Both the position numbers and the translations under genes were made by a program. From Naegleria gruberi (lineage: Eukaryota): a stretch of DNA of 64,000 nucleotides. The stretch lies in NCBI GenBank assembly GCA_000004985.1, contig GG738868.1; one strand, written 5' to 3'. Position 1 is the stretch's first letter. Each line of letters starts with the position of its first letter. The notes below the pieces were generated by a model, which saw only the letters and a list, made by a program, of their open reading frames with translations, did no database searches and had not been told where the DNA came from. This document shows, in pieces, positions 1,940-35,495 of this stretch.

Positions 1940-3319
1940 TCATTCTCTGGATAATTGAAAGAGTGAAAACAAAGAAATTGGATAAATTTCATCACCATCC
2001 ACGATTAAATTACCTGAATCATGAAGAGCTCCGAGTTGTTGCTTAAAGTTAGATGGAATTGGCTCTTCCTGCAGGGCTATCCACAACTTCATGGCTTCAG
2101 AATACTTCAATGGAGTGAAAGATTCCAAATTGGCCTTTCTCACCTTATTCATATCGAGTTCAATATTTTCCTTAGAAAGTGAGAAATCAAATAATCTTGC
2201 CAATATTCCTCTATTATCTGAACAAAGTGATTCAAAAAATTCAGTATTGATTTCCAACATTTTCTTTGTAATTTCTAAAAGGAATTGATTTGAATCATCA
2301 CCAAGCTTGTGAGAATCAGAGATGGAGTAGGAAATATCCAACTCTTCCATCACTAACAATTTGCTTATTTCCCTCATGTTTCCTCCTGTGAGGAAGGTTA
2401 TCTCATTGGCTCTTCCTGATTTACATTTCAGGAACTCTTCAATATTCTTTGAGTTGGTTGGTTTCACAGAAGGGAGTCTAATTTCCAAGAACTTGCTTGG
2501 GGAGAATGCACGTTCTGATTTGAATGGAATGTTGACTTCAGATGAAGGAATGAAATTGGAACAGCTTAGAGTTACGGGAATTCTTCCACTGGAATCCCCT
2601 GCAAGAGTGGACAACCAGGCAATATGAGCATGTGCTTTTGGAAAGTCTTTGGTGTTCAATTCATAAACTTTCTCAACATTGTCAATTATTAACATTAAAT
2701 ACTTGTCGCTTGATTCGAGAAGGGTTGACAATTCATGAAGCTTATCACTATAACCTGACTTTTTTCTCTTCAACGAATGTTCCCTTTCCAATTCACTGAA
2801 AATCAAATCAATTGGTACAGTTTTCTTAAAGCTCTCATTTCCACAAATATGTTCGTATGTTAAATAAATTGGAATAACCTTAGGGTGGAAAACTTGGCAT
2901 GATTGAACAAAGTTTTTGTAGGTCATACTCTTTCCAATTCCTGAATTACCAACAAGAATGATATTGCTCACTCCAGTCTTTCGTACGAAATAACCACTTT
3001 CCAATAAGAAAGCTCGATGGGAAAGTTGCTTAAAGATAGAAGCATGAACAGGAGTATTCGCAATCTCGCTAACAGTAGAAGGATACTTCTCCTTACATGA
3101 TTTAAACATCCTTCTCCATTCCTCAAAAGTTACTGTCTGACTGTTGTAAAATTGTTTAAGTTTCAAAGTCAATGGATTATTCCTATTGGCACTCATTAGA
3201 AAAGAAGACCATTTCGATCCAATAGATGATTCTGATTTGCTGTACATTCTTACCATTACCTTGGGCTTAATCATCCTCAACAGATGATTGGAAGTACAAA
3301 GTTTGTGAGTTTTGAACAT
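1940..3319 (-). CDS. P-loop NTPase of unassigned family (459 aa). Walker A is ILVGNSGIGKSMT, Walker B is LMLIIDNVEKV, and a sensor-like segment is VTLSCSN. It resembles an AAA+/STAND-type NTPase.
   Basis: Uninterrupted ORF with a true ATG at 3317-3319. The Walker A and hhhhDN Walker B motifs have the spacing typical of AAA+/STAND NTPases. I recognise no named family with confidence. Confidence 0.5.
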   Translation of the reverse strand: MFKTHKLCTSNHLLRMIKPKVMVRMYSKSESSIGSKWSSFLMSANRNNPLTLKLKQFYNSQTVTFEEWRRMFKSCKEKYPSTVSEIANTPVHASIFKQLSHRAFLLESGYFVRKTGVSNIILVGNSGIGKSMTYKNFVQSCQVFHPKVIPIYLTYEHICGNESFKKTVPIDLIFSELEREHSLKRKKSGYSDKLHELSTLLESSDKYLMLIIDNVEKVYELNTKDFPKAHAHIAWLSTLAGDSSGRIPVTLSCSNFIPSSEVNIPFKSERAFSPSKFLEIRLPSVKPTNSKNIEEFLKCKSGRANEITFLTGGNMREISKLLVMEELDISYSISDSHKLGDDSNQFLLEITKKMLEINTEFFESLCSDNRGILARLFDFSLSKENIELDMNKVRKANLESFTPLKYSEAMKLWIALQEEPIPSNFKQQLGALHDSGNLIVDGDEIYPISLFSLFQLSRE

Positions 3320-3665: not shown

Positions 3666-5104
3666 ATGGGTAACGCACCGAGTGGAGGACAACAACCTTT
3701 CCAACTTCCTGGCGCTGGAAAAAAGCAGAATAAGGACGATAAGAAAAAGAAGAAGGAAAAGAAAAAGTTTGAACAACCAGTACCAACCCGTATTGGCAGA
3801 AAAAAGAGGAAAAAGGGTCCACAAATTGCTGAAAAGCTTCCAGAAGTTACACCAGTCTCAAAATGTAAACTTAGAATACTACGATTGGAAAGAGTTAAAG
3901 ACTATCTTACAATGGAAAAAGAATTTGTTACTAATCAAACAAAACTTTTGACTGCCCAAGAAAAGAGCAAGGATATGGAAGAGGAACGTAACATGGTCGA
4001 TGAATTAAGAGGATCACCAATGGCTGTAGGAACTCTTGAAGAAATTATTGATGATAACCATGCTATTGTTTCTAGCAGTGTTGGTCCTGAATTCTATGTT
4101 TCAATCCTTTCAATTGTTGATAAGGATCAATTGGAACCTGGTTGTAGTATTTTAATGCACAATAGATATTTGGCTGTTGTTGGTATTCTTCAAGATGAAG
4201 CCGATCCAATGGTCTCTGTCATGAAAGTCGATAAGGCTCCTCTCGAATCATATTCACAAATTGGTGGTTTGGAAGATCAAATCCAAGAAATCAAGGAAGC
4301 TGTCGAATTCCCATTAACACATCCAGAACTTTATGAAGATATTGGTATTAAACCACCAAAAGGTGTTATACTTTATGGTGAACCAGGTACAGGAAAGGTA
4401 TGTAGTAATTATTTATACAACAATGTATTAATCATCATCATTATACTTATATTATTGAATATGTATAATCATATTAGACACTTCTTGCCAAAGCTGTAGC
4501 CCATCACACCAGTGCTACTTTCTTGCGTGTTGTTGGTTCCGAACTCATTCAAAAGTATCTTGGTGAAGGTCCAAAACTTGTTCGTGAATTGTTTAGAGTT
4601 GCTGAAGAATTGGCTCCAAGTATTGTATTTATAGACGAAATTGATGCTATTGGTACAAAGAGATTTGATTCAACATCAGGAGGTGAACGTGAAATTCAAA
4701 GAACTATGCTTGAATTGCTTAACCAATTGGACGGTTTCGATTCCAGGGGTGACGTTAAGGTTATCATGGCCACTAACAGAATTGATTCTCTTGATACTGC
4801 TTTGATTAGACCTGGTAGAATTGATCGTAAGATTAAATTCCCATTCCCAGATGTTAAGACAAAGAGAAAGATCTTTGAAATTCACACTCGTAAGATGAGT
4901 AAGGCTACTGATGTAAATTTGGATGAATTTATTTCCTCAAAGGATGAATTGTCTGGTGCTGACATTAAAGCTATTTGTACAGAAGCAGGTTTGTTGGCTC
5001 TCAGAGAACGTAGACTCCAAGTTACTCAAACAGACTTTACAAAGGCCAAGGAAAAGGTTTTGTACAAAAAGCAACAAGGTATTCCAGAAGGTCTTTACAT
5101 TTAA
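3666..5104 (+). CDS. RPT2: 26S proteasome regulatory ATPase subunit Rpt2 (PSMC1/S4), N-myristoylated. join(3666..4397,4478..5104).
   Basis: 'MGNAPSGG…[15 protein letters not shown]…[24 protein letters not shown]…GEPGTGK|[44 protein letters not shown]…[35 protein letters not shown]…' is near-identical to PSMC1 along its length. One 80-nt GTATGT..TAG intron splits the Walker A codon block in phase 0. Confidence 0.92.
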
Positions 5105-19502: not shown

Positions 19503-22500
19503 CTAATCAGAGTCTGTACTTGCATCTCCATAATCATCTTCCTCTTCAACCTTCATAGTTTCTTCTTCCTCAGGATCACTATCACCATTGTCATCAATAT
19601 TGTCTTCCTCCTCTTCTTCATTCTCCTCATCACTGTCAAAATCAACTCTTTTTTTAGCCTTATAATTAATCAGAGAAGGATTCATTGAAGAGGTATATCC
19701 AAAACAGAATACTTGAAAACCACCAACTCCATTCAACAACATTTGAGTTTTTTCACAAATTTCCAATTCACACCATCCTCTTTCAGCTGCCTCCTTCTTT
19801 GTTGGAGTTGGATTTTTCTTTCCTGGATTGGCACTAACTGTGAGTAAGGTTTCCTTTCTCAATTGATTTTCTGGTTCTTCCCAAAAGTCATCTGAGCTAA
19901 TTGGTAAAATACCTTCCATAGAAGGTAAGAAATAAGTATTCACAGCAGAAGTCAAATAGGAAATAGTATGGGTTGGTCTCTTGAGATTATGAATCTTGTT
20001 TTTCAAACTATCATTCACTTGATAGTTCCACATAGCTACTCTTCCAATATGTTTCTTATTGTCAAATATGGATTCCAACTGTTCAACCAAAAATCTTGCA
20101 ATTTGAATGTCAGGATTGTTGAGTTGAATTTCTTTCAATAATTCAATAAATTGTTGAGGATTGTGAATTATTAATTTAAGAGTTGATTCTGAGGATACTT
20201 CATTAGTAATTTCTGTTATTCTACTATTATACTTTTTTCTTGATGGACCTTTGATCGATTTGATATATTCATCCAAAATGTCCAACAAGTGAAATCGTCC
20301 ATTTCCCAATTCTTCAATGATTTGATCAGTCAAATTGTATTTTAACTTGAGTATTTTCAAGCAATTAGCTGCAAACTCCGGTTCCAGTAGAATTTCTTTC
20401 AACTTTGCAAATCTAACCCTAGAAACGTTTGGATTAAATAGCTCAGTATGTAAAACTTTTTCCATAAATTGTAAACTTCTGAGCATTGATGTTTCATGTG
20501 AAACAAACAATTTTTGTTGTCTACTATATTCATAAAATTCTAAAATGTCATCTTGAATAATATGAATGCATTCAAGTTTAAGAAATTGACCAATTGCCAA
20601 AATTGAGGAATGAACAATGCCAGGTCCAAGAGGCATATTAGATTCCAAAACAATAAAATTGTAGTCATCCACTCTATTTCCATTAGATATAATCCATTTC
20701 TTATATCTATTGATATATTTTGATTCTGTTACAATGGTTACACAATTTGGAATTGAATCTGAATGCAGCTTCTTCACGAAATTAGAATAGAGATAAGGTT
20801 TCCAAAATTTTCCTCTTGGTCTTGATTTGATAAATAGAGGTTTCAATCCATCACTAGTGAGCGTTGAAATCTGTTTCAGTTTAGTCAAAAAGCTTTCTTC
20901 ATTATAGGAAATTTCTAGAATTTCATCATCTCTATTAAACTTGACCAATATTTCGTTATCATTCGAATAGTTTCTATCCATTACTTTAACAGGAATTGTG
21001 TATCTATCTCTCTTCTCGAATTTGAATTTCAACAAGGCATCGTTATGTGAGCAAAATGATTTTTGTTTTTCTTGCTTTTTTGCTTTCTTCTTTTCCTTCT
21101 TCTTCTTTTCCTTCTTTTCAGGGACAGGAGGTCTTAAATCAGTTACACTTTCAGATTCTTTATCTGGAAGATCTAATTTACATTCTTCCAATCTTTGTGG
21201 GAATGGATATTTGTCTTCAATGATTACCTCACCAATTGATGATTTCTTATTTTGGTACTTTGTCAATAGTTGTTTAACATTTTTGTGTAAACCAAAACTC
21301 AATTCTTCCCATGATTGGACAGTTTCCTCAAATTGAACACTAAAATCATGTTCAAAATCTTCCACTGCTTGCACAATATCTAGAATTATCTTTTCCTTTG
21401 ATTTGTCCTTTTCCTCAAAATTTGGATTCAAAGAATAGCACAAAGACTGGACCCACTCTAATGGAATGATAGTATCACTTCTCAGGTATGATTCTTGCAA
21501 AATAGATGTTAATTTGGCTTGGAATCTTTTAGTAAGAGTGTTGAAACAACTTAAAAAGCTCTCTAATTTTAAAAAAAACCCACTGTTAAAATACCCAAAG
21601 CATTGCTTCCACCTCTTGATTCTCTGTGGTACTTTCAATTGGTTTAGTTTCTTTTGTTTTGTTTTTTTCAATTCAGGTACAATTTCTTTCCTTTGAAAAC
21701 CTAATACAATAGGATTGGTGTAATAGGATGAAAACTTCTTTACGAAAGAATCTATTGTCTTTTCTTTTAAGGCATCCACATCAGGTATATTTTCTTTCAA
21801 TCCATCAATAACACTTTGCAATTTCTTCTGAATTTTCTGGATACATGACTTCAATTCTTTCACGAACTTTAATGGAAACTTTTGTACTTTCTTAATAGTT
21901 GTATTAGACAGTACAACAATAGCCATGTCTCTTAATTGACTAATATTGTTTGATATAATCTTTTTTCTATTGTTTTCAATAATTGATTGTAAATTGGAAA
22001 CAAAGTGATCTCTCATTTCAACGTTGTTAGGTGGTGGAAAACAAACTAAATCAAAATTATCATATAATCCCTTTACAAAATCATACTTGTTTTCCATATC
22101 AATTTCATTGGTATTGATATTATTGGCTTCTAATTCCAAGTCGAAAGGGACATCATCTAGCTCACAATCGAAATGAAAAGCAAGTTGCTTTCCATATGAT
22201 TCTTTCATGGGTTTGAAAACGTTTTTTGTCATAACCTCATTCTTGTAGCTCTCCTCATTCATTACCTTATTATTAGCTAAGATTGCAATGTAAGGTTGAT
22301 GGGTTTGTTGTGGTTGATGGATACCATAATCCCACACCTTTTGTACAATACCATCATCAAGAATGATCCTTTCATTTTCAATACCACACAATAACAAGCA
22401 GGTGTCATATAAACTTTCTCTTATCAAATGCTTGTAGGATACATTTTCATGGACATTTACTGGATCAGTAGTTTGCTTTTCATCATATCCAGGCATATCT

Positions 22501-23243
22501 CTGAGAATTATTTTGCTCCTTTGAAGGAACTTGGAAGGGATTTTCAAGATTAACTTCTTAATATGGACTTTCTTAAAGTTGGTGTCAGCATCAAACTCTA
22601 AAATCTTGTTACGTGCTTTAGTGGCCAGAAATTCATAAAGTTCCTCTTCAGAATTTCCATTGTCAATAATATAATTTGATTGATTGTCAATTTCACAATC
22701 TTTCAAAGTATCAGTAGCAAGTTGTTCAACTTTCCTTGCACACAACTCTTGTTGTGAACAATACTGAACAGTCAAACTGTAAGTTGGTGAATACTCAACA
22801 TCAACAACTGTACGTGTCAAACCCTTTCCAAACTGAACAGCAGAAGGAAGAGGAGCATTAGTCATTTTGAAATCAGACAACAATTGATCAATGATGAAGG
22901 ATTTACCATATCCTGGCTTACAAAACAGGGTAACCACAACTTTGCCCCGAAAATCCTTGATGATTCCCTCCATAGACTCTAAATGTTCAGAACACATTGT
23001 CCTAATGGATCCCTTCTTATTGGAACCGTTTAAATGTTCCTTGTAGAATGTTTTAACCTTATCAAAATCCTCAGTTTCTGTCTTCATTTGTTTATCCTCC
23101 TGCTGTTCATTGCCATTCTCTGGTGATGGGTCCATTTTGATTTTCTTGGGTGCTTGTTCTGTAGATGATGAAGCAGTTGCAGCAGCAGCAGCAGTAGCAG
23201 TAGTAGCACTCGGAGAGTGAGTAATCTTTCTCTTTCGAAGCAT
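19503..23243 (-). CDS. Large (1246 aa) TRAFAC-type GTPase of a septin/AIG1(GIMAP)-like 'DMPG' family, with a poly-Ala/Thr N-terminus and an acidic C-terminal tail.
   Basis: True ATG at 23241-23243. G1 is 'LFCKPGYGKSFIIDQLLS', a G2-like segment is 'GLTRTVVDVE', and G3 is 'ILRDMPGYDEK' (hhhD.PG, as in septin DTPGFG or GIMAP DTPGLFD). The C-terminus '…DSDEENEEEEEDNIDDNGDSDPEEEETMKVEEEDDYGD' is strongly acidic. Confidence 0.6.
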   Translation of the reverse strand: MLRKRKITHSPSATTATAAAAATASSSTEQAPKKIKMDPSPENGNEQQEDKQMKTETEDFDKVKTFYKEHLNGSNKKGSIRTMCSEHLESMEGIIKDFRGKVVVTLFCKPGYGKSFIIDQLLSDFKMTNAPLPSAVQFGKGLTRTVVDVEYSPTYSLTVQYCSQQELCARKVEQLATDTLKDCEIDNQSNYIIDNGNSEEELYEFLATKARNKILEFDADTNFKKVHIKKLILKIPSKFLQRSKIILRDMPGYDEKQTTDPVNVHENVSYKHLIRESLYDTCLLLCGIENERIILDDGIVQKVWDYGIHQPQQTHQPYIAILANNKVMNEESYKNEVMTKNVFKPMKESYGKQLAFHFDCELDDVPFDLELEANNINTNEIDMENKYDFVKGLYDNFDLVCFPPPNNVEMRDHFVSNLQSIIENNRKKIISNNISQLRDMAIVVLSNTTIKKVQKFPLKFVKELKSCIQKIQKKLQSVIDGLKENIPDVDALKEKTIDSFVKKFSSYYTNPIVLGFQRKEIVPELKKTKQKKLNQLKVPQRIKRWKQCFGYFNSGFFLKLESFLSCFNTLTKRFQAKLTSILQESYLRSDTIIPLEWVQSLCYSLNPNFEEKDKSKEKIILDIVQAVEDFEHDFSVQFEETVQSWEELSFGLHKNVKQLLTKYQNKKSSIGEVIIEDKYPFPQRLEECKLDLPDKESESVTDLRPPVPEKKEKKKKEKKKAKKQEKQKSFCSHNDALLKFKFEKRDRYTIPVKVMDRNYSNDNEILVKFNRDDEILEISYNEESFLTKLKQISTLTSDGLKPLFIKSRPRGKFWKPYLYSNFVKKLHSDSIPNCVTIVTESKYINRYKKWIISNGNRVDDYNFIVLESNMPLGPGIVHSSILAIGQFLKLECIHIIQDDILEFYEYSRQQKLFVSHETSMLRSLQFMEKVLHTELFNPNVSRVRFAKLKEILLEPEFAANCLKILKLKYNLTDQIIEELGNGRFHLLDILDEYIKSIKGPSRKKYNSRITEITNEVSSESTLKLIIHNPQQFIELLKEIQLNNPDIQIARFLVEQLESIFDNKKHIGRVAMWNYQVNDSLKNKIHNLKRPTHTISYLTSAVNTYFLPSMEGILPISSDDFWEEPENQLRKETLLTVSANPGKKNPTPTKKEAAERGWCELEICEKTQMLLNGVGGFQVFCFGYTSSMNPSLINYKAKKRVDFDSDEENEEEEEDNIDDNGDSDPEEEETMKVEEEDDYGDASTDSD

Positions 23244-23847: not shown

Positions 23848-25146
23848 TTAATCATGAGACTTTTCATAATTATTATTTTTCTTAATAATTTGAATGGTAC
23901 TAGTTTGGGCCGAGGAAATTTTAGCATGTGCTACCTCAACCAACTTCAAAAGTAATTTCAAATGCATGTATTCGAAAATCTTGACAATTTCCTCATTTTT
24001 ACATTGGAATTTGGAAATGAATGGAATTGGATAGTCAGCAGAAACGATATTCTCAAAGTTTCCATCGCCCGTCTCTAAAATATCCCATTCATAGAACAAT
24101 TTCAATACATTGGCTTTGGTGATTTCAATTGGAACTTCATCTTGAGTTCTCATATCAAGTATTGGAACACTCTTCTCAATGTAATCTCTGAAAATGGAAT
24201 GGCCATCAATTTTAGAGTAGCAATAAATGCACGAGGTGGAGAATTCAGAGGAAATATAGGATGGAATCGATGTATAATAGTCAAGCATGGTTTCCTTAGT
24301 TTTAGATTCTGTTGAGAACATGGTTGGATTGTTAATAGGAATTGGAACAAACACAGCATGAGGAGCATCAAATTCTTGTGCAACTTGTTCAAAAACTGTC
24401 TTGAATAAATATTCAGAAAATTCAAACTTCTCAATGAGTTGCTTTTCGTTATCGAATTTGAAAAATCCTGGCATATCTTGAAGATAGATCTTTTCAAATT
24501 TTTCGACATCATCAATTGGGATCTTGGATACATCCTTAGTGAATGAATTGAGATAGTCTTTGGACGGATTTTTAGCATCAGAGAGGATCTTGTAGGCCAT
24601 TTCCATGAAACTTGCACTACCTTCCTTAAATGGAACTCGTTTTGATTTGAGTGTTTTAAGAATTCTATTCAAGATGGTTGATTTTCCACCAGATGCAATG
24701 GAGACACCAGCCAAAGTGATTTGATTATCACCAATCATCTCCAATTGAGTAATAATCTGTTCCTTCAGCATTTCACAATTAAAATCAATGTGTAACAGTT
24801 CTGTTGTTTCCTTTTTGAGAGATTGTACCATTACATTTTCAACTGAGTGAACTACTATTCCATCCAAAGTTTCAATTCTTGCATTGAACAGAATATTTTC
24901 TGGAACAATAATAGAACATCTAGCTTCCTTGGTTTCTTGATCATAACCATCTCCTGCCACAAAGAGCTTTTTTACAATTTTCTTATCGAGATAGCTTACA
25001 ACTACTTTGAAAGCTGTGTGGGCAGTTTCATTCACGATAGTGTTAAACTTGAATTGAAATATAACCTTGGCTAATCTGGTAATATGATGTGAAGGGTTGA
25101 ATCTTGGTGGTGTAACTTTGGTTTCGGCTGAGTATTGGTTTCCCAT
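23848..25146 (-). CDS. Small (432 aa) paralogous TRAFAC-type 'DMPG' GTPase. It is predicted to be N-myristoylated (MGNQYS).
   Basis: True ATG at 25144-25146. G1 is 'GVSIASGGKSTILNRILKTL' (compare septin GESGLGKSTLIN) and G3 is 'IYLQDMPGFFKF'. It shares the P-loop plus DMPG[FY] arrangement with the 1246-aa neighbour. Confidence 0.6.
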   Translation of the reverse strand: MGNQYSAETKVTPPRFNPSHHITRLAKVIFQFKFNTIVNETAHTAFKVVVSYLDKKIVKKLFVAGDGYDQETKEARCSIIVPENILFNARIETLDGIVVHSVENVMVQSLKKETTELLHIDFNCEMLKEQIITQLEMIGDNQITLAGVSIASGGKSTILNRILKTLKSKRVPFKEGSASFMEMAYKILSDAKNPSKDYLNSFTKDVSKIPIDDVEKFEKIYLQDMPGFFKFDNEKQLIEKFEFSEYLFKTVFEQVAQEFDAPHAVFVPIPINNPTMFSTESKTKETMLDYYTSIPSYISSEFSTSCIYCYSKIDGHSIFRDYIEKSVPILDMRTQDEVPIEITKANVLKLFYEWDILETGDGNFENIVSADYPIPFISKFQCKNEEIVKIFEYMHLKLLLKLVEVAHAKISSAQTSTIQIIKKNNNYEKSHD

Positions 25147-25526: not shown

Positions 25527-26261
25527 TTATTGAGATGATTGCCTTAATATTTCATTTGCCTTATTTGAAATTTCATAATCTCCAAATCCTTTAATTGCTA
25601 TATATGGAAAATCAGAAGAAATACCATATTTAACTAGCAATATATCAGCTCCATTTGCATGTTCGCTATTTAGTTTTTTCGCACTTCTTGTTGGTTCAAA
25701 AGCAATTTGTCTCATTTTGACCTTTTTTTTAAGTTCACTTATCTTGAAAATCGTTTGAATTTTCTCATCCAATTTGGAATGATTGCAATTATATCCCAAA
25801 TAATACAAATTCTTAATTACTATTGATTCAGTTTCCCTCATAGCTTCGTTTACAGGTGTTTCTTGCGTTTTCTCTACATTCTTCTGATTTTCTTCATCAT
25901 CAGTTTCCTTTCCATGTGTTTCACCATTTTTCTTGACATTCTTCAATTTAGATTCGTCCACATATTCCTGAATTGGTACAATAGCAGCAGAACTTGTCGA
26001 ATGATCAACGCTCATCGTATTATAGTTGGTATTTTGATTTTCCTTATTGAATTCTTTTGATTCTTCATCCACTTGACTAGGATTTCTACACAATTTACCA
26101 ACTACAAGTGCAGGTTGATTGAAAACCAACAATGCCATCAACATCATTTGTAAATAAACAATATATGGAAGTAAGCCAACCAATAAGAAACCCAAAAAGA
26201 AGGCAACAAGTACATTTCGTTGATCCAAACATGTCTGAAAAAGATAGAGTGGTAGAAACAT
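25527..26261 (-). CDS. Single-pass membrane protein A (244 aa): an N-terminal TM, a low-complexity linker and a conserved 100-aa C-terminal domain of unknown family.
   Basis: True ATG at 26259-26261. The TM segment is 'VLVAFFLGFLLVGLLPYIVYLQMMLMALLV'. The C-terminal domain is 'SIVIKNLYYLGYNCNHSKLDEKIQTIFKISELKKKVKMRQIAFEPTRSAKKLNSEHANGADILLV…FPYIAIKGFGDYEISNKANEILRQS'. Confidence 0.55.
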   Translation of the reverse strand: MFLPLYLFQTCLDQRNVLVAFFLGFLLVGLLPYIVYLQMMLMALLVFNQPALVVGKLCRNPSQVDEESKEFNKENQNTNYNTMSVDHSTSSAAIVPIQEYVDESKLKNVKKNGETHGKETDDEENQKNVEKTQETPVNEAMRETESIVIKNLYYLGYNCNHSKLDEKIQTIFKISELKKKVKMRQIAFEPTRSAKKLNSEHANGADILLVKYGISSDFPYIAIKGFGDYEISNKANEILRQSSQ

Positions 26262-26649
26262 GATCTATTGTAAGTTAAAGAGAAATAATGAACTGGCCTT
26301 CTCATTGAGAAGAATTTGCTTGAATAATTTCCATTTTCCAGTTTCTGATGTTTCGTCGGCCATAGAATCGGCCCTTTTCACAAAACACAACATGATTGGG
26401 AAGAGATTGGCCAATAAACAAAGTAGGAAATGTGAGAAACCATATTGTTGAGTGGTTCTGAAGGAAAGTGTCTCAAGTTTCGTATAGGTCATCATACGAG
26501 AATATAACTTTAATTTTTTTCAATACCTCTCTTCCAAACGTGATTCAAATATTTTGATTTATTTTCATACCTTTCTTCCAAACGTGATTTTGAAAAACGT
26601 GTAAGTTTACAATCCACCAGTATTCGAAACGTGATTCACTTTAAAAAAA

Positions 26650-27339
26650 ATGCTCAAATTTATTAGTGGAGTTGTTTGTGGAAGTGGAATTACAACACTA
26701 GCCCAGTTCTATGTATCGTCAACCAAATTAGAGAGTCCACCAGGCAGTGAAATTTCACAAGTTGAACCTTTACATGTTGTGATGAATGATTCAACTCCAT
26801 CACCCAGTCATTCATTGGCAATTCCAAGTACGGATTCATCTCTAAATGTTATAGGATTGACTTTGGGAGGAAATTTTGTTTTGATTTGGGTGGTGTTGTG
26901 GGAAGTGGGTAAAATCTTATTTGGTAAGAAGAACGAGAAAAGGGAAATGAGAAAGGAAGAAGCTCAACAAGACGAAACAACAAAACTGAATAATTCTGAA
27001 GGAAAAATTGAAACTGAATCAAGTATCATTAAGAATTTGTATTATTTGGGATATAATTGCAATCATTCCAAATTGGATGAGAAAATTCAACAGATTCTCA
27101 ATACTAATCAACTTGAAAAAAAGGTCAAAATGAGACAAATTGCTTTTGAATCAACGAGAAGTTTGAAAAAGCCAACAAGTGAACATGCGAATGGAGCTGA
27201 TATATTGCTAATTCCTTCTGGAGATTGTCTTTTTATGGATATTCCATATATAGCAATGAAAGGATTTGGAGAATATGAAATTTCAAATAAGGCTATTGAA
27301 TTATTGAAACAATCTGTACAAATAAATTCAAATTATTGA
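26650..27339 (+). CDS. Single-pass membrane protein B (229 aa), an inverted head-to-head paralogue of protein A with the same C-terminal domain.
   Basis: The C-terminal domain is 'SSIIKNLYYLGYNCNHSKLDEKIQQILNTNQLEKKVKMRQIAFESTRSLKKPTSEHANGADILLI…IPYIAMKGFGEYEISNKAIELLKQS', about 70% identical to A over 100 aa. The TM segment is 'LTLGGNFVLIWVVLWEVGKILF'. The two start codons are 388 bp apart. Confidence 0.55.
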   Translation: MLKFISGVVCGSGITTLAQFYVSSTKLESPPGSEISQVEPLHVVMNDSTPSPSHSLAIPSTDSSLNVIGLTLGGNFVLIWVVLWEVGKILFGKKNEKREMRKEEAQQDETTKLNNSEGKIETESSIIKNLYYLGYNCNHSKLDEKIQQILNTNQLEKKVKMRQIAFESTRSLKKPTSEHANGADILLIPSGDCLFMDIPYIAMKGFGEYEISNKAIELLKQSVQINSNY

Positions 27340-28184
27340 AGATTATTCTGGGATGAACACAAAAAACGAGTAAAGCATGTTAATGGTGGAAGATTGATGA
27401 TGGAAATGGCTTTATATAATAAGGATGAGGTATTAAGCCATTTTTTGATATTGTTCAACAGTAATAGTTTTCTCTCGTTTATCGGAGCCGGACAGATATT
27501 AATGTCATTGAATTTTATTAAGGATTCCCACATGAAAACACTAACTCATGTTAATTGCTGACTGCTGACGAATATATCAGCAGGTTCCATCATCACATGG
27601 ACATTCACATAAGAACATGTCGTATTAATTGATGATACAACCAGTGAAGTGTTATGGTTGTTAGACGTAAAAAAGATTAACATAGAAAATTCATCTTCTT
27701 TATCTTCTAATTGAATTCATTCTTTGAATATTATTCATATTGGTTTGTTGTATTCTTTGCATGGTCTGATTATGTGTACGAATATTATTCATATGAGTTC
27801 TATGATTACTTTCATTGGTTCTTCTGATGGTTTCATTGGTTCTCCTGATAGTTTCTTGGGTTATTTAATTACTTTGAGAGAACAGCCAAGTCACAAAGCA
27901 TGGACACAACAAACCAGGTGCTTTTGGAACTTGTGACACTATTCATCAAACTTTAATTTGAGTGAGTTACTAAACTTTATCTTCACATTTATCGGAAACA
28001 GTGCAACCAACCAAACAATTGGATTTGTGCAAGTATTGTAAAGTGCGTATCCAAAACCAAGTTGACCAATAGAAGGACAACCAGGTTCTTCCGATGTTAC
28101 AATCACTAGTTTTGAAGATTACATTTCGCGACTCATAAATCGCCTTCAAAGCTGAATAAGGGAAAATTGTTTCTTTCAAAAAAA

Positions 28185-30077
28185 ATGTCTTCACTGCATA
28201 CTACTAAGAAGGAAACCAAACCAACAAGAAGACCTCTATCTTCAGCAGCTAAGAGATTACTTGAAGATTTGAAACAATTAAATCGTCAAAGTGAGCTCAA
28301 ATACATATCTGCTCAACCACTGTCTAATAATTTATTTGAATGGCATTGTAATCTGTATGGAAATGAAGAATCCATGTATAAGGAGTGTTGTTATCATTTC
28401 ATTATCAAGTTTCCAAAAGATTATCCTCACAATCCACCACAAATTGAAGCATGTTCTGATTTGTTACATCCACAAGTTTACAATAGAAAAGTATGCTTGG
28501 AATTGACTCAACAGAAGGAAGGCACCGAAGAGAATGCAGATGGATGGAGTTGTTCATATACTGTATTTTCAATTCTAATGCAATTGCAATCTTTCTTATT
28601 CGATTCCAAGGTCTCTAATAGACCAATGATTAAAATTGAGCAAAAAGATGCATACAATGTAAAATGCAGCAAATGTGGGCATGTACCAAGAGATGGTAAC
28701 ATATTTCCATATCATGAAATGAATTCCATTTGTTTCTCAGAGTTAAAAAAGGAATTGAGGAATTCTAGACCATCTAAATCAAGTAATAGGAAAAAGGAGA
28801 GAAGTAATATTGTAATTATTGAAAATGAAGAAGATATTGAAAAGATGTACTCAAATCAATCAGGACAATCCACTAGTTCTGTTCCAATCAAGAATGGAAA
28901 TACAATTTCCAAACAAGTACTTTTTCACATTTTCAAATTCTTGGAAAAATCAGAATTGGATTCGACCATGTTTAAAGTTTGCAAGGAATGGAAGGAAATT
29001 TCTCAACATCCTCTCTTTGGTAATAGAGAAAGAATTTGTTACTTTACAAAACAACCATGCAGAGATGAAGAAACCATTTTAGGATATGGTGTCGAACCAA
29101 AGTTTACAAAAACTGGAAGATTGATTAATATTGATTCACCTTATGAATATCTATCTTTTCATTCGTTTAGAAATTTGAACGTGAGAACTAGTGTTTGGAA
29201 TATTTCCTTCCAAAATTGGATTCCAATTCCAGTATTTACAATTCAAATTGGAAATGAATTGAAAAATGTGGAAGAATATTTGTTTAACCTATTTAAGGAT
29301 TGTGTATCAGAAATATATTACTTTCTTCAAAGTGATTCAACAGTTGAATTTCAATCTCTTGATTTGTTAGGTAAAATGATGAACTCTATAATTATTAACA
29401 TTCTCAGAAATCAAAGTCATGCATCTGTCAAAGCACTTGATGCCTACATCAATTTACACAGATGGTTAATTATGTTATGTGAAAAGTATCCAAATGTACT
29501 TTTACTCATTGATGAGAAAATTGAAAAATTCATCCAAGATGAAGAATTTAGAAGTAAGGAACATGTCCCTGCCCTTGGAGAATTCCTCTGCTTACTCTCA
29601 GTTTCAGAAAAGTTCACTTGGGATGAGATGGCACCTGCTATTATTAAGGAATCTCTTGATAGAGGAAGTTTGTGGGGTGTCTTTTCAAATGAAAAATTGA
29701 AAGATGTGATTGAATATCATTTGGAGGAAGATAAGGAAAGAGAACGAATGATTAATACATTCGAGGCAACAAAATCTAATCTGCATAATTTAGCTTTCCA
29801 TAGTTTCCTAATTAGATATTTCAGAATGAAAACTAGAGTTGAAACTGCTGAATATTATGATAGAAATTACTTGACTCCATATATTGTAAATTCAAATGAG
29901 AAGGATCAAGAGAGATTGAGAAGTGCTCTTGTGGAAATTCAATCCAAGATTATTAACTATTATGAATTCTTCAAATATGTTCAAAATGTTGAATTGGATG
30001 AGATTTCAATCATGTTAAAATTAAGAGTTGCCATGAAGAATATGAAAAGAAGAGGATATTATGAAGAAAATAAATAG
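28185..30077 (+). CDS. Ubiquitin-conjugating (UBC/E2) domain protein with a C-terminal extension that contains an F-box-like motif (630 aa).
   Basis: The E2 core is '…AAKRLLEDLKQL…LFEWHCNLYGNEESMYKECCYHFIIKFPKDYPHNPPQIEACSDLLHPQVYNRKVCLEL…WSCSYTVFSILMQLQSFL' (HPN-like loop, active-site Cys, conserved Trp). An F-box-like 'QVLFHIFKFLEKSELDSTMFKVCKEWKEISQHPLF' follows. The true ATG is at 28185. The track start at 28167 is TTG. Confidence 0.65.
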   Translation: MSSLHTTKKETKPTRRPLSSAAKRLLEDLKQLNRQSELKYISAQPLSNNLFEWHCNLYGNEESMYKECCYHFIIKFPKDYPHNPPQIEACSDLLHPQVYNRKVCLELTQQKEGTEENADGWSCSYTVFSILMQLQSFLFDSKVSNRPMIKIEQKDAYNVKCSKCGHVPRDGNIFPYHEMNSICFSELKKELRNSRPSKSSNRKKERSNIVIIENEEDIEKMYSNQSGQSTSSVPIKNGNTISKQVLFHIFKFLEKSELDSTMFKVCKEWKEISQHPLFGNRERICYFTKQPCRDEETILGYGVEPKFTKTGRLINIDSPYEYLSFHSFRNLNVRTSVWNISFQNWIPIPVFTIQIGNELKNVEEYLFNLFKDCVSEIYYFLQSDSTVEFQSLDLLGKMMNSIIINILRNQSHASVKALDAYINLHRWLIMLCEKYPNVLLLIDEKIEKFIQDEEFRSKEHVPALGEFLCLLSVSEKFTWDEMAPAIIKESLDRGSLWGVFSNEKLKDVIEYHLEEDKERERMINTFEATKSNLHNLAFHSFLIRYFRMKTRVETAEYYDRNYLTPYIVNSNEKDQERLRSALVEIQSKIINYYEFFKYVQNVELDEISIMLKLRVAMKNMKRRGYYEENK

Positions 30078-35422: not shown

Positions 35423-35495
35423 GTACCCTTGGCTCAATTGGAAGAGCATCGGCCTACGGAGCCGGGGGTTGTGGGTTCGAGTCCCACAGGGTATA
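35423..35495 (+). tRNA. tRNA-Arg(ACG): tRNA-Arg (anticodon ACG), 73 nt, no intron.
   Basis: Manual cloverleaf fold: acceptor GTACCCT/AGGGTAT (G1-U72 wobble); D-arm GCTC-AATTGGAA-GAGC; anticodon arm TCGGC-CTACGGA-GCCGG with U33 and anticodon A34-C35-G36; variable loop GGGTT; T-arm GTGGG-TTCGAGT-CCCAC; discriminator A. Confidence 0.85.

Follow-up and report, generated by a model that had tools for sequence, protein, structure and literature searches.

A head-to-head gene pair of Naegleria gruberi sharing a C-terminal module within a short inverted repeat

Two divergent ORFs of Naegleria gruberi, here termed genes A and B, are arranged head-to-head with 388 bp between their start codons. An earlier note on this DNA had described them as a recent inverted duplication of one membrane protein gene, with a conserved C-terminal domain suggestive of a small nucleotide- or ligand-binding fold. 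This raises the question of how much of the two genes is shared, how recently the shared part was copied or exchanged, and whether its conservation tells anything about function. Here, "the window" denotes the whole 64-kb stretch of DNA that was analysed.

Organization of genes A and B

Re-reading of the sequence returned the same ORF coordinates, divergent orientation and spacing as the earlier note, and all motifs quoted there were found in A and B. In public records, both products are annotated as "predicted protein" and each forms a single-member cluster. Scans of the locus with Rfam and for tRNAs revealed no relevant match.

Gene A (25527..26261, minus strand) is a full ORF of 244 aa with a hydrophobic N-terminus, an E/K/N/T-rich linker and the C-terminal domain shared with B. 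Its public model (NAEGRDRAFT_49159, XP_002677250) comprises 205 aa and starts at Met40 of the ORF. Hydropathy analysis displayed a hydrophobic region at residues 17–58 (26088..26213, minus strand), with Kyte-Doolittle peaks of up to 2.66 over 19 residues and a continuous hydrophobic stretch of 40 residues, which might form one long helix or a hairpin of two membrane helices. With the Met40 start, just a signal-peptide-like hydrophobic N-terminus of 16 residues would be left. The start of A is uncertain, and the choice between Met1 and the annotated Met40 changes the predicted anchor and perhaps also the topology.

Gene B (26650..27339, plus strand) encodes 229 aa and is the same as NAEGRDRAFT_67696 (XP_002677137, D2VFP4). 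Based on hydropathy, it harbors a single strong transmembrane segment at residues 65–86 (26842..26907, plus strand), directly followed by the Lys/Arg-rich stretch GKKNEKREMRK, while its weakly hydrophobic N-terminus might be a signal peptide. Following the positive-inside rule, the Lys/Arg cluster would place the C-terminal side of B in the cytosol.

A ciliate-type genetic code and tiny introns were dropped as explanations, given the N. gruberi origin of the DNA and an intron in the proteasome ATPase gene that, by eye, appears to be of the ordinary GT...AG type.

Inverted repeat and mosaic divergence

BLASTP comparison of A with B resulted in 62% identity over 133 aa (E=3e-51). In the domain proper, the same residue was found in 76 of the 102 aligned codons (about 75% amino acid identity), so that A and B are paralogues over this domain. 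The shared domain, delimited by BLASTP and repeat comparison, covers residues 143–244 of A (25530..25835, minus strand) and residues 121–229 of B (27010..27336, plus strand), which form the left and the right arm of an inverted repeat. At the nucleotide level, the arms consist of a block of 204 nt with 88% identity (25632-25835 and 27010-27213) and a second block of 91 nt with 84% identity (25537-25627 and 27224-27314), giving two arms of about 300 bp with 1174 nt between them. Compared with that of A, the domain of B has two additional codons inserted and extends five codons further at its C-terminus; the copies differ by an indel of 6 nt, which is in frame. Similarity ends just before the stop codon of A and a few codons short of that of B. 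An assembly artefact was ruled out, as 47 of 306 sites differ between the arms, which lie in different gene contexts.

Homology turned out to be restricted to these last 102 codons. Between the anchor and linker parts, no similarity was detected (Smith-Waterman score of 29 versus 27.3 +/- 5.0 for shuffled sequences, P=0.34), and blastn found no further segments common to A and B. Since only the 3' 0.3 kb are demonstrably duplicated, in the form of the inverted repeat, the term "gene duplication" holds for this part and is an overstatement for the remainder, where the N-terminal 120-142 residues are unalignable.

The recent date proposed for the duplication agrees with the synonymous divergence of the domain, which is about 0.28 overall (dS=0.28, dN=0.15) and zero in its 5' half. 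Synonymous differences amounted to 0 in 19.7 sites over codons 1-47 and to 8 in 23.7 sites over codons 48-102 (Fisher P=0.004), and the longest identical run between the arms measured 63 nt (P=0.00025). Regions that were duplicated together with the domain would still show about 75% identity at a dS of 0.28; as the upstream parts cannot be aligned, the recent exchange was limited to the 3' end. The mosaic of differences speaks for recent copying or for gene conversion rather than for deep conservation, though a similar pattern would also arise if constraint acted at the nucleotide level or if the variable patches were under diversifying selection. We infer gene conversion between the arms from two sequences and with no outgroup. 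Constraint on the shared part is weak: its dN/dS of 0.54 lies below 1 without significance (Fisher P=0.07), the differences are spread nearly evenly over the codon positions (14/14/19), and relaxed or no selection would also be compatible with these values.

Paralogues in inverted repeats, the arms of palindromes, that are kept similar by intrachromosomal gene conversion are a general phenomenon, known for example from the palindromes of sex chromosomes. Like such arms, the shared parts of A and B are inverted and close to each other, with a sharp boundary of similarity and identical tracts amid divergent patches. In contrast to classical palindromes, they are only 0.3 kb long and, with 84-88% identity, far less homogenised.

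Fold of the shared domain and searches for relatives

The ligand-binding idea had been derived from an "invariant" E-H-A-N-G-A-D motif and found no support in our analysis. With two sequences of about 87% nucleotide identity (n=2) that are identical even at synonymous sites in long stretches, the invariance of this motif reflects recency or gene conversion and not constraint. Likewise, the proposed alpha/beta fold could not be predicted: AlphaFold2 with two-sequence alignments reached pLDDT values of 39.5 and 50.0, unusable beyond a rough beta-alpha-beta-beta-beta-alpha order, and the Foldseek check of the predicted domain against the PDB yielded nothing, its best E value of 1.7 being meaningless. 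The main practical outcome of this study is a negative one, in that a nucleotide- or ligand-binding fold deduced from the motif is unsupported and the apparent conservation is explained by the recency of exchange.

The statement that the domain belongs to no known family stood up to all searches performed. Neither Pfam, NCBIfam and PHROGs nor the sequences of the PDB offered a credible family, and no well-characterised one was matched. An HMMER profile search for further members among 1.84 billion protein representatives returned A and B themselves and one spurious repeat protein, and scans of metagenome, viral and prokaryote contigs revealed no relatives of the shared domain. Within the collections searched, A and B would therefore be rated as a species-restricted pair of orphan paralogues; unannotated relatives may exist in the DNA of other Naegleria genomes. 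As for the orphan gene families of protists and other N. gruberi "predicted proteins", no homologue is detectable outside one species, and both genes share with protist orphans their short length, a hydrophobic segment together with a low-complexity region, the lack of a Pfam domain and a low-confidence structure. Unlike these, they form a family of two members whose common part is a C-terminal module of about 100 aa in an inverted repeat.

Two marginal matches to known proteins were followed up. A profile built from both sequences and run against PDB sequences ranked the glycosyltransferase YeGT (8ovs) first, with a whole-sequence E of 0.0066, and PaTox (4mix) at E=0.14; in both, AQASDILR...KDIDDIQIKGFG was aligned with ANGADILL...MDIPYIAxKGFG of A and B. 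The shared domain could accordingly be imagined as what is left, in degenerate and non-catalytic form, of the region that binds the sugar nucleotide in a clostridial-toxin-type (GT44) GT-A glycosyltransferase, from the "SDILR" helix up to the strand with the DXD. The likeness is weak and local, covering about 75 residues with the segments "A-x-x-(S/A)-D-I-L" and "D-I-x...IKGFG". However, the best single stretch scored 12.5 bits (independent E=1), which is non-significant, and the whole-sequence E value sums three non-collinear pieces. Where YeGT has D-I-D, B has D-I-P and A has D-F-P, so that the DXD is absent. With 102-109 aa, the module is less than half as long as a GT-A domain (299 and 336 residues in the chains solved for YeGT and PaTox, respectively), the rest of A and B being anchor and low-complexity linker. 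As no Pfam glycosyltransferase model was matched at E<=10, including Gly_transf_sug and TcdA_TcdB, and the exhaustive HMMER search delivered no glycosyltransferase, we consider this descent very improbable. Slightly less credible still is a kinship with the bacterial phage-defence candidate PDC-S05 of PADLOC, which might have entered the amoeba by horizontal transfer. Gene A matched the models PDLC04870 (E=4.9e-4, 17.5 bits) and PDLC04884 (E=0.024), but B, although about 75% identical to A, matched neither at E<=10, and about 59 of 214 profile positions were covered (43-101). Moreover, the prokaryote genome scan and the HMMER search contained no bacterial protein of this kind, the context of A and B is eukaryotic, and one match at such a level is not surprising after trying several libraries and proteins.

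Coding status and nature of the repeat

Based on codon usage, the in-frame indel and the ORF lengths, both genes look protein-coding. In this genome of 33% GC, the chance of a stop-free run is 2e-8 for 229 codons and 6e-9 for 244 codons. Codon-usage log-odds were +0.31 per codon in frame for B and +0.26 for A, all other frames of either gene being negative; both values lie among those of conserved neighbours, which extend from +0.19 to +0.55, with the unique and the shared parts behaving alike. In simulations with 47 random substitutions, the ORF of the domain stayed open in 4-8% of the runs. The earlier note had also considered that one copy might be a pseudogene; codon usage and ORF statistics gave no sign of decay in either.

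Two readings would nevertheless deprive the ORFs of their meaning. In the first, which we judge unlikely, one or both are non-functional: a segmental inverted duplication of recent date would have produced ORFs that are evolutionarily transient or in decay and owe their annotation to being open, with the similarity left as a neutral residue. The dN/dS of 0.54, not significantly below 1, and the 14/14/19 spread over codon positions would suit this, as would the lack of homologues in all searches and of a confident AlphaFold fold; the identifiers of A and B were also found neither in the searchable literature nor in two sets of proteomic supplements for N. gruberi. Against it stand 229-244 open codons at 33% GC (P about 1e-8), a gene-like codon usage that extends into the unique N-terminal parts, the in-frame indel and the retention of the ORF after 47 substitutions (P=0.04-0.08); in addition, ends so close to both stop codons would be surprising for a random segmental copy. 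In the second, to which we assign the lowest probability of all, the repeat is a mobile or foldback element with long terminal inverted repeats and a 1.2-kb core, or a locus for hairpin RNA, and contains the ORFs only incidentally. Its geometry fits, with inverted arms of about 300 bp lying 1174 nt apart, and blocks identical even at synonymous sites are compatible with constraint at the nucleotide level. Yet the 64-kb window, the part of the N. gruberi genome to which the count applies, contains two arm copies only, and collections of metagenome, viral and prokaryote contigs contain none. No target-site duplication is obvious, the flanks of the arms differ (ttattgagat versus tgtacaaata), and Pfam and PHROGs revealed no transposase-like ORF or domain. 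The arms also end within a few codons of both stops, inside long ORFs with gene-like codon usage. As for a hairpin RNA, transcription runs outward, so that no normal transcript has both arms and the mRNAs are similar, not complementary.

Proposed origin and role

Altogether, we somewhat favor the interpretation that A and B are two real, N. gruberi-restricted genes whose last c. 102 codons have one origin and whose products are membrane-anchored, with a cytosolic domain serving as an interaction module. Each product would consist of an N-terminal membrane anchor, a charged and probably disordered linker, and a mixed alpha/beta domain of about 100 residues, which the positive-inside rule would put in the cytosol. 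Its likeliest role may be that of a membrane-tethered interaction module, topology and function both being deduced from the sequence. With regard to origin, the 3' 0.3 kb of one gene could have been copied in inverted orientation. The architecture common to A and B makes it seem likelier to us that an older inverted duplication comprised the whole gene and that its 3' arms were later homogenised patchily by gene conversion, in which case the anchor and linker parts would have diverged beyond recognition.

The pair bears on no long-standing question, and no defined cellular process is connected with it. Provided that A and B are both expressed, they would illustrate in compact form how a protein module specific to one lineage spreads and is kept, with different membrane anchors of a deeply branching eukaryote having received an inverted partial duplicate or conversion tract. 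Structure prediction for orphan domains could, in addition, be tested on the pair.

Intergenic region and neighbouring genes

The divergent intergenic region of 388 bp (26262..26649) is presumed to be a shared promoter. A repeat search identified three imperfect direct repeats of about 37 nt (26509..26636, plus strand), each ending in AAACGTGATT, which are spaced 44 and 47 nt apart, the last one ending 14 nt upstream of B's start codon. Exact copies of this 10-mer in the 64-kb window are confined to these three. The repeats are candidate cis-regulatory sites.

The ORF list further contained an ORF of 76 codons (26265..26495, minus strand) in the frame of A, separated from the ATG of A by its TAG and one codon. 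It is probably non-coding: chance alone would produce about 26 ORFs of such length in the window, the codon score is weak (+0.12) and the GC3 of 0.43 is atypical. Splicing of this ORF to A was also considered and rejected: the GT...AG pairs examined by eye either disrupt the frame or span 29 nt and have a poor donor.

Two neighbours (19503-23243 and 23848-25146) had been labelled as GTPases. This label is based on visible P-loop-like motifs, namely Walker-A-like ASGGKST and PGYGKS together with DMPG, and on a sub-threshold match of the 432-aa protein to MMR_HSR1 (E=0.027; 15 bits, below the cut-off of 21.9 bits). The 1246-aa protein had no match in Pfam, and neither of the two had a sequence relative in the PDB. 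A homologue search with the 432-aa protein returned itself, so that it was found in N. gruberi alone. It is quite improbable in our view, though a little less so than the kinships weighed above, that the module represents a globular domain that is truly new, of recent birth and specific to N. gruberi, perhaps with a novel fold, and that its two anchored copies are co-regulated from a common promoter with the three AAACGTGATT sites and work with the adjacent lineage-specific P-loop proteins in a novel membrane-recruitment system.

For the E2/F-box neighbour, no relative exceeded 38% local identity and the best full-length match reached 29%. The neighbours further include a TPT transporter.

Gene pair and inverted repeat

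Two ORFs in this nuclear DNA stretch from the amoeboflagellate Naegleria gruberi, gene A (25527-26261, minus strand, 244 codons) and gene B (26650-27339, plus strand, 229-aa product), form a head-to-head pair whose ATGs are 388 bp apart. The ORF coordinates thus bear out the layout described in an earlier note; the pair is real, and all items quoted there were found at the locus. The product of B is identical to XP_002677137 (NAEGRDRAFT_67696, D2VFP4), and that of A contains XP_002677250 (NAEGRDRAFT_49159, D2VFP3), the annotated start of which is Met40 of the 244-codon ORF. Both were deposited as 'predicted protein', each is the sole member of its own 90% cluster, and their identifiers were absent from the searchable papers and from two supplement sets.

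The 3' ends of both genes form an inverted repeat with arms of 204 nt (25632-25835 and 27010-27213, 88%) and 91 nt (25537-25627 and 27224-27314, 84%), the offset between the two arm pairs being a 6-nt in-frame indel. BLASTP revealed 62% identity of the proteins over 133 residues (E=3e-51), and in the C-terminal domain proper the same residue is encoded at 76 of 102 aligned codons. The similarity has a sharp onset at the E-T-E-S codons and breaks off no more than a few codons from the stop codons. For the N-terminal parts (142 residues in A, 120 in B), the Smith-Waterman score of 29 corresponded to that of shuffled sequences (27.3 +/- 5.0, P=0.34), and blastn with a word size of 7 detected no further segment common to both genes. 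Gene duplication, as proposed earlier, is therefore demonstrable for the C-terminal part with its inverted repeat, but not for the unalignable N-terminal parts.

Protein architecture

In B, a weakly hydrophobic N-terminus is followed by a Ser/Pro/Thr-rich stretch, a strong hydrophobic segment (residues 65-86), and the sequence GKKNEKREMRK, a pattern from which a cytosolic C-terminal part is predicted by the positive-inside rule. A displays an unbroken hydrophobic stretch (residues 17-58) followed by GKLCRN, which could form one long helix or two; starting from the annotated Met40, the hydrophobic part shrinks to a signal-like segment of 16 residues. A single-pass topology, as suggested for both, is thus plausible for B and one of two options for A. 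The linkers are rich in E/K/N/T and differ in length (about 85 vs. about 33 residues). Judged by hydropathy and charge distribution only, our best guess is that both products are membrane-anchored proteins, each with a small interaction domain that would face the cytosol.

Evolution of the shared module

Comparison of the 102 codons (Nei-Gojobori) resulted in dN=0.149, dS=0.276, and omega=0.54, with 14/14/19 differences by codon position; over the whole module the synonymous excess was not significant (Fisher P=0.07). The differences were strongly clustered, as indicated by the longest identical run of 63 nt (permutation P=0.00025), a high variance among 15-nt bins (P=0.004), and the synonymous differences, of which none was found in 19.7 sites of codons 1-47 vs. 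eight in 23.7 sites of codons 48-102 (Fisher P=0.004). At motifs such as EHANGAD the two copies have almost the same DNA, down to the synonymous sites, which accounts for the invariance; these motifs are thus uninformative on a binding site, although EHANGAD was previously read as a hint at a nucleotide- or ligand-binding fold. The high identity of the C-terminal module of about 100 aa appears to be due to recent copying or gene conversion.

At a dS of about 0.28, an identity of about 75% would be expected for the 5' parts, yet these are unalignable, which leaves two explanations other than whole-gene copying at that time. Either the 3' 0.3 kb alone would have been copied onto a different gene, or an older inverted duplication would have been followed by patchy homogenisation of the 3' arms by gene conversion. 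Since A and B have the anchor-linker-domain layout in common, we favour the older duplication with gene conversion as the more likely of the two, judged from the two sequences only.

Search for relatives and predicted fold

A HMMER search with a profile built from both domains covered about 15 billion proteins, each 50% cluster being represented by one sequence, and matched only the two N. gruberi proteins and one repetitive protein of 2331 aa (E=1.3e-4), which was rejected as spurious. Using a degenerate pattern and tblastn, no relatives were detected in JGI metagenome contigs, IMG/VR viral contigs, or 185,579 prokaryote genomes, and Pfam, NCBIfam, and PHROGs gave no credible match for the module, in agreement with the earlier note, where it could not be assigned to a known family. 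A and B thus seem to represent a two-member orphan family restricted to N. gruberi. In protist genomes, such pairs of orphan paralogues are a common feature.

AlphaFold2 with two-sequence alignments yielded mean pLDDT values of 39.5 (pTM 0.30) and 50.0 (pTM 0.37). Both models agreed just roughly, on an order starting with a beta strand or short helix, continuing with a helix and three or four strands, and closing with a helix at the C-terminus. When the better one was compared with the PDB by Foldseek, the best E-value was 1.7. With models of such low confidence, the suggested small alpha/beta fold is plausible as a description of secondary structure, but the proposal that it binds a nucleotide or ligand is unsupported.

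Coding status and alternative readings

A and B might be non-functional, transient ORFs, which we regard as unlikely, though it ranks first among the alternatives. The chance of a stop-free run at this base composition is 2e-8 for 229 and 6e-9 for 244 codons. The in-frame codon usage score, in log2 units per codon, was +0.26 for A and +0.31 for B, within the range of a reference of ten, mostly conserved, window ORFs (six printed scores, +0.19 to +0.55); unique and shared parts taken separately were also gene-like, and all other frames scored negative. After 47 random substitutions, the 102-codon domain stayed open in just 4-8% of simulations. Based on ORF lengths, codon usage, simulated ORF retention, and the in-frame indel, we accept both genes as probably protein-coding, or coding until very recently.

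Far less probable is a degenerate glycosyltransferase fragment, which ranks second. Among PDB sequences, the glycosyltransferase domains YeGT (8ovs, whole-sequence E=0.0066) and PaTox (4mix, E=0.14) were matched over a segment reading A-x-x-(S/A)-D-I-L ... D-I-x ... IKGFG. However, the low total E-value adds up non-collinear pieces, the best single stretch having an independent E of 1; DIP/DFP stands at the DXD position, the module comprises about 100 aa vs. 299 and 336 residues in the matched solved chains, and no Pfam model of that kind appeared even at E<=10. A relationship to the PADLOC defence candidate PDC-S05 is slightly less credible still: copy A matched two of its models (E=4.9e-4 and 0.024), but copy B matched none at E<=10, and coverage was just 59 of 214 profile positions. 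Both resemblances are provisionally treated as due to chance. Least likely of all, the inverted repeat could be a mobile or hairpin element; no third copy was found in the window.

Divergent intergenic region

Within the 388 bp, immediately upstream of B, three imperfect direct repeats of about 37 nt (26509-26545, 26553-26589, and 26600-26636, plus strand; spacing 44 and 47 nt) each terminate in AAACGTGATT (ACGT/ACGTG core), the third stopping 14 nt before the ATG. As these are the only exact copies of this 10-mer in the 64 kb, the repeats are candidate cis-elements; one-mismatch copies elsewhere occurred at chance level (7 found vs. 8.8 expected). In the same region, gene A is preceded in frame by an ORF of 76 codons that includes a hydrophobic segment (26265-26495, minus strand); only TAG and one further codon stand between this ORF and the ATG of A. 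It might represent a 5' exon or uORF of A, but is probably a chance ORF: the window should contain about 26 ORFs this long by chance, the codon score of this one is weak, and an intron that would sensibly join it to A was not found at the locus. A 21-nt tandem repeat (27797-27859, about three copies, 80-90% matches) was detected on the other side of B, in the spacer towards the E2/F-box gene.

Neighbouring genes

Surrounding ORFs are ordinary eukaryotic genes, e.g., for Gaa1, NXF1/TAP, a Vps34-type PI3-kinase, a proteasome ATPase, and a nucleotide-sugar transporter. Two ORFs formerly called neighbouring GTPases, of 432 aa (23848-25146, minus strand) and 1246 aa (19503-23243, minus strand), harbor Walker-A-like (ASGGKST; PGYGKS) and DMPG motifs, but neither has a family match above threshold, their sole Pfam signal being a sub-threshold MMR_HSR1 in the 432-aa protein (E=0.027). 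No PDB relative was found for either, and no relationship was detectable between them. The protein collection holds no homologue of the 432-aa protein but itself. As it was likewise found only in N. gruberi, the four genes seem to constitute a run of lineage-specific genes. It is quite improbable that the module represents a fold of recent birth which acts together with these adjacent P-loop proteins.

Beyond the tandem repeat, a 630-aa protein (28167-30077, plus strand) combines an E2 domain (UQ_con, E=2e-22) with an F-box-like segment that stays below threshold (E=0.0045, 17.2 bits vs. a cut-off of 24.3), an unusual architecture. Its only relatives found, from marine eukaryote transcriptomes (29-38% identity), carry precomputed UQ_con and F-box-like annotations, some also SPRY. 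A 459-aa ORF (1940-3319, minus strand) with AAA_22/NACHT-like P-loop matches (E=3.5e-6 and 2.9e-4) is a possible STAND-type NTPase. The proteasome regulatory ATPase gene (3666-5104, plus strand) has an apparent intron directly after the Walker A GTGK, roughly 70-80 nt long with its AG end at about 4476 (by eye, frame-1 translation), and a tRNA-Arg(ACG) gene (35423-35495, plus strand) is flanked by two protein-coding genes.
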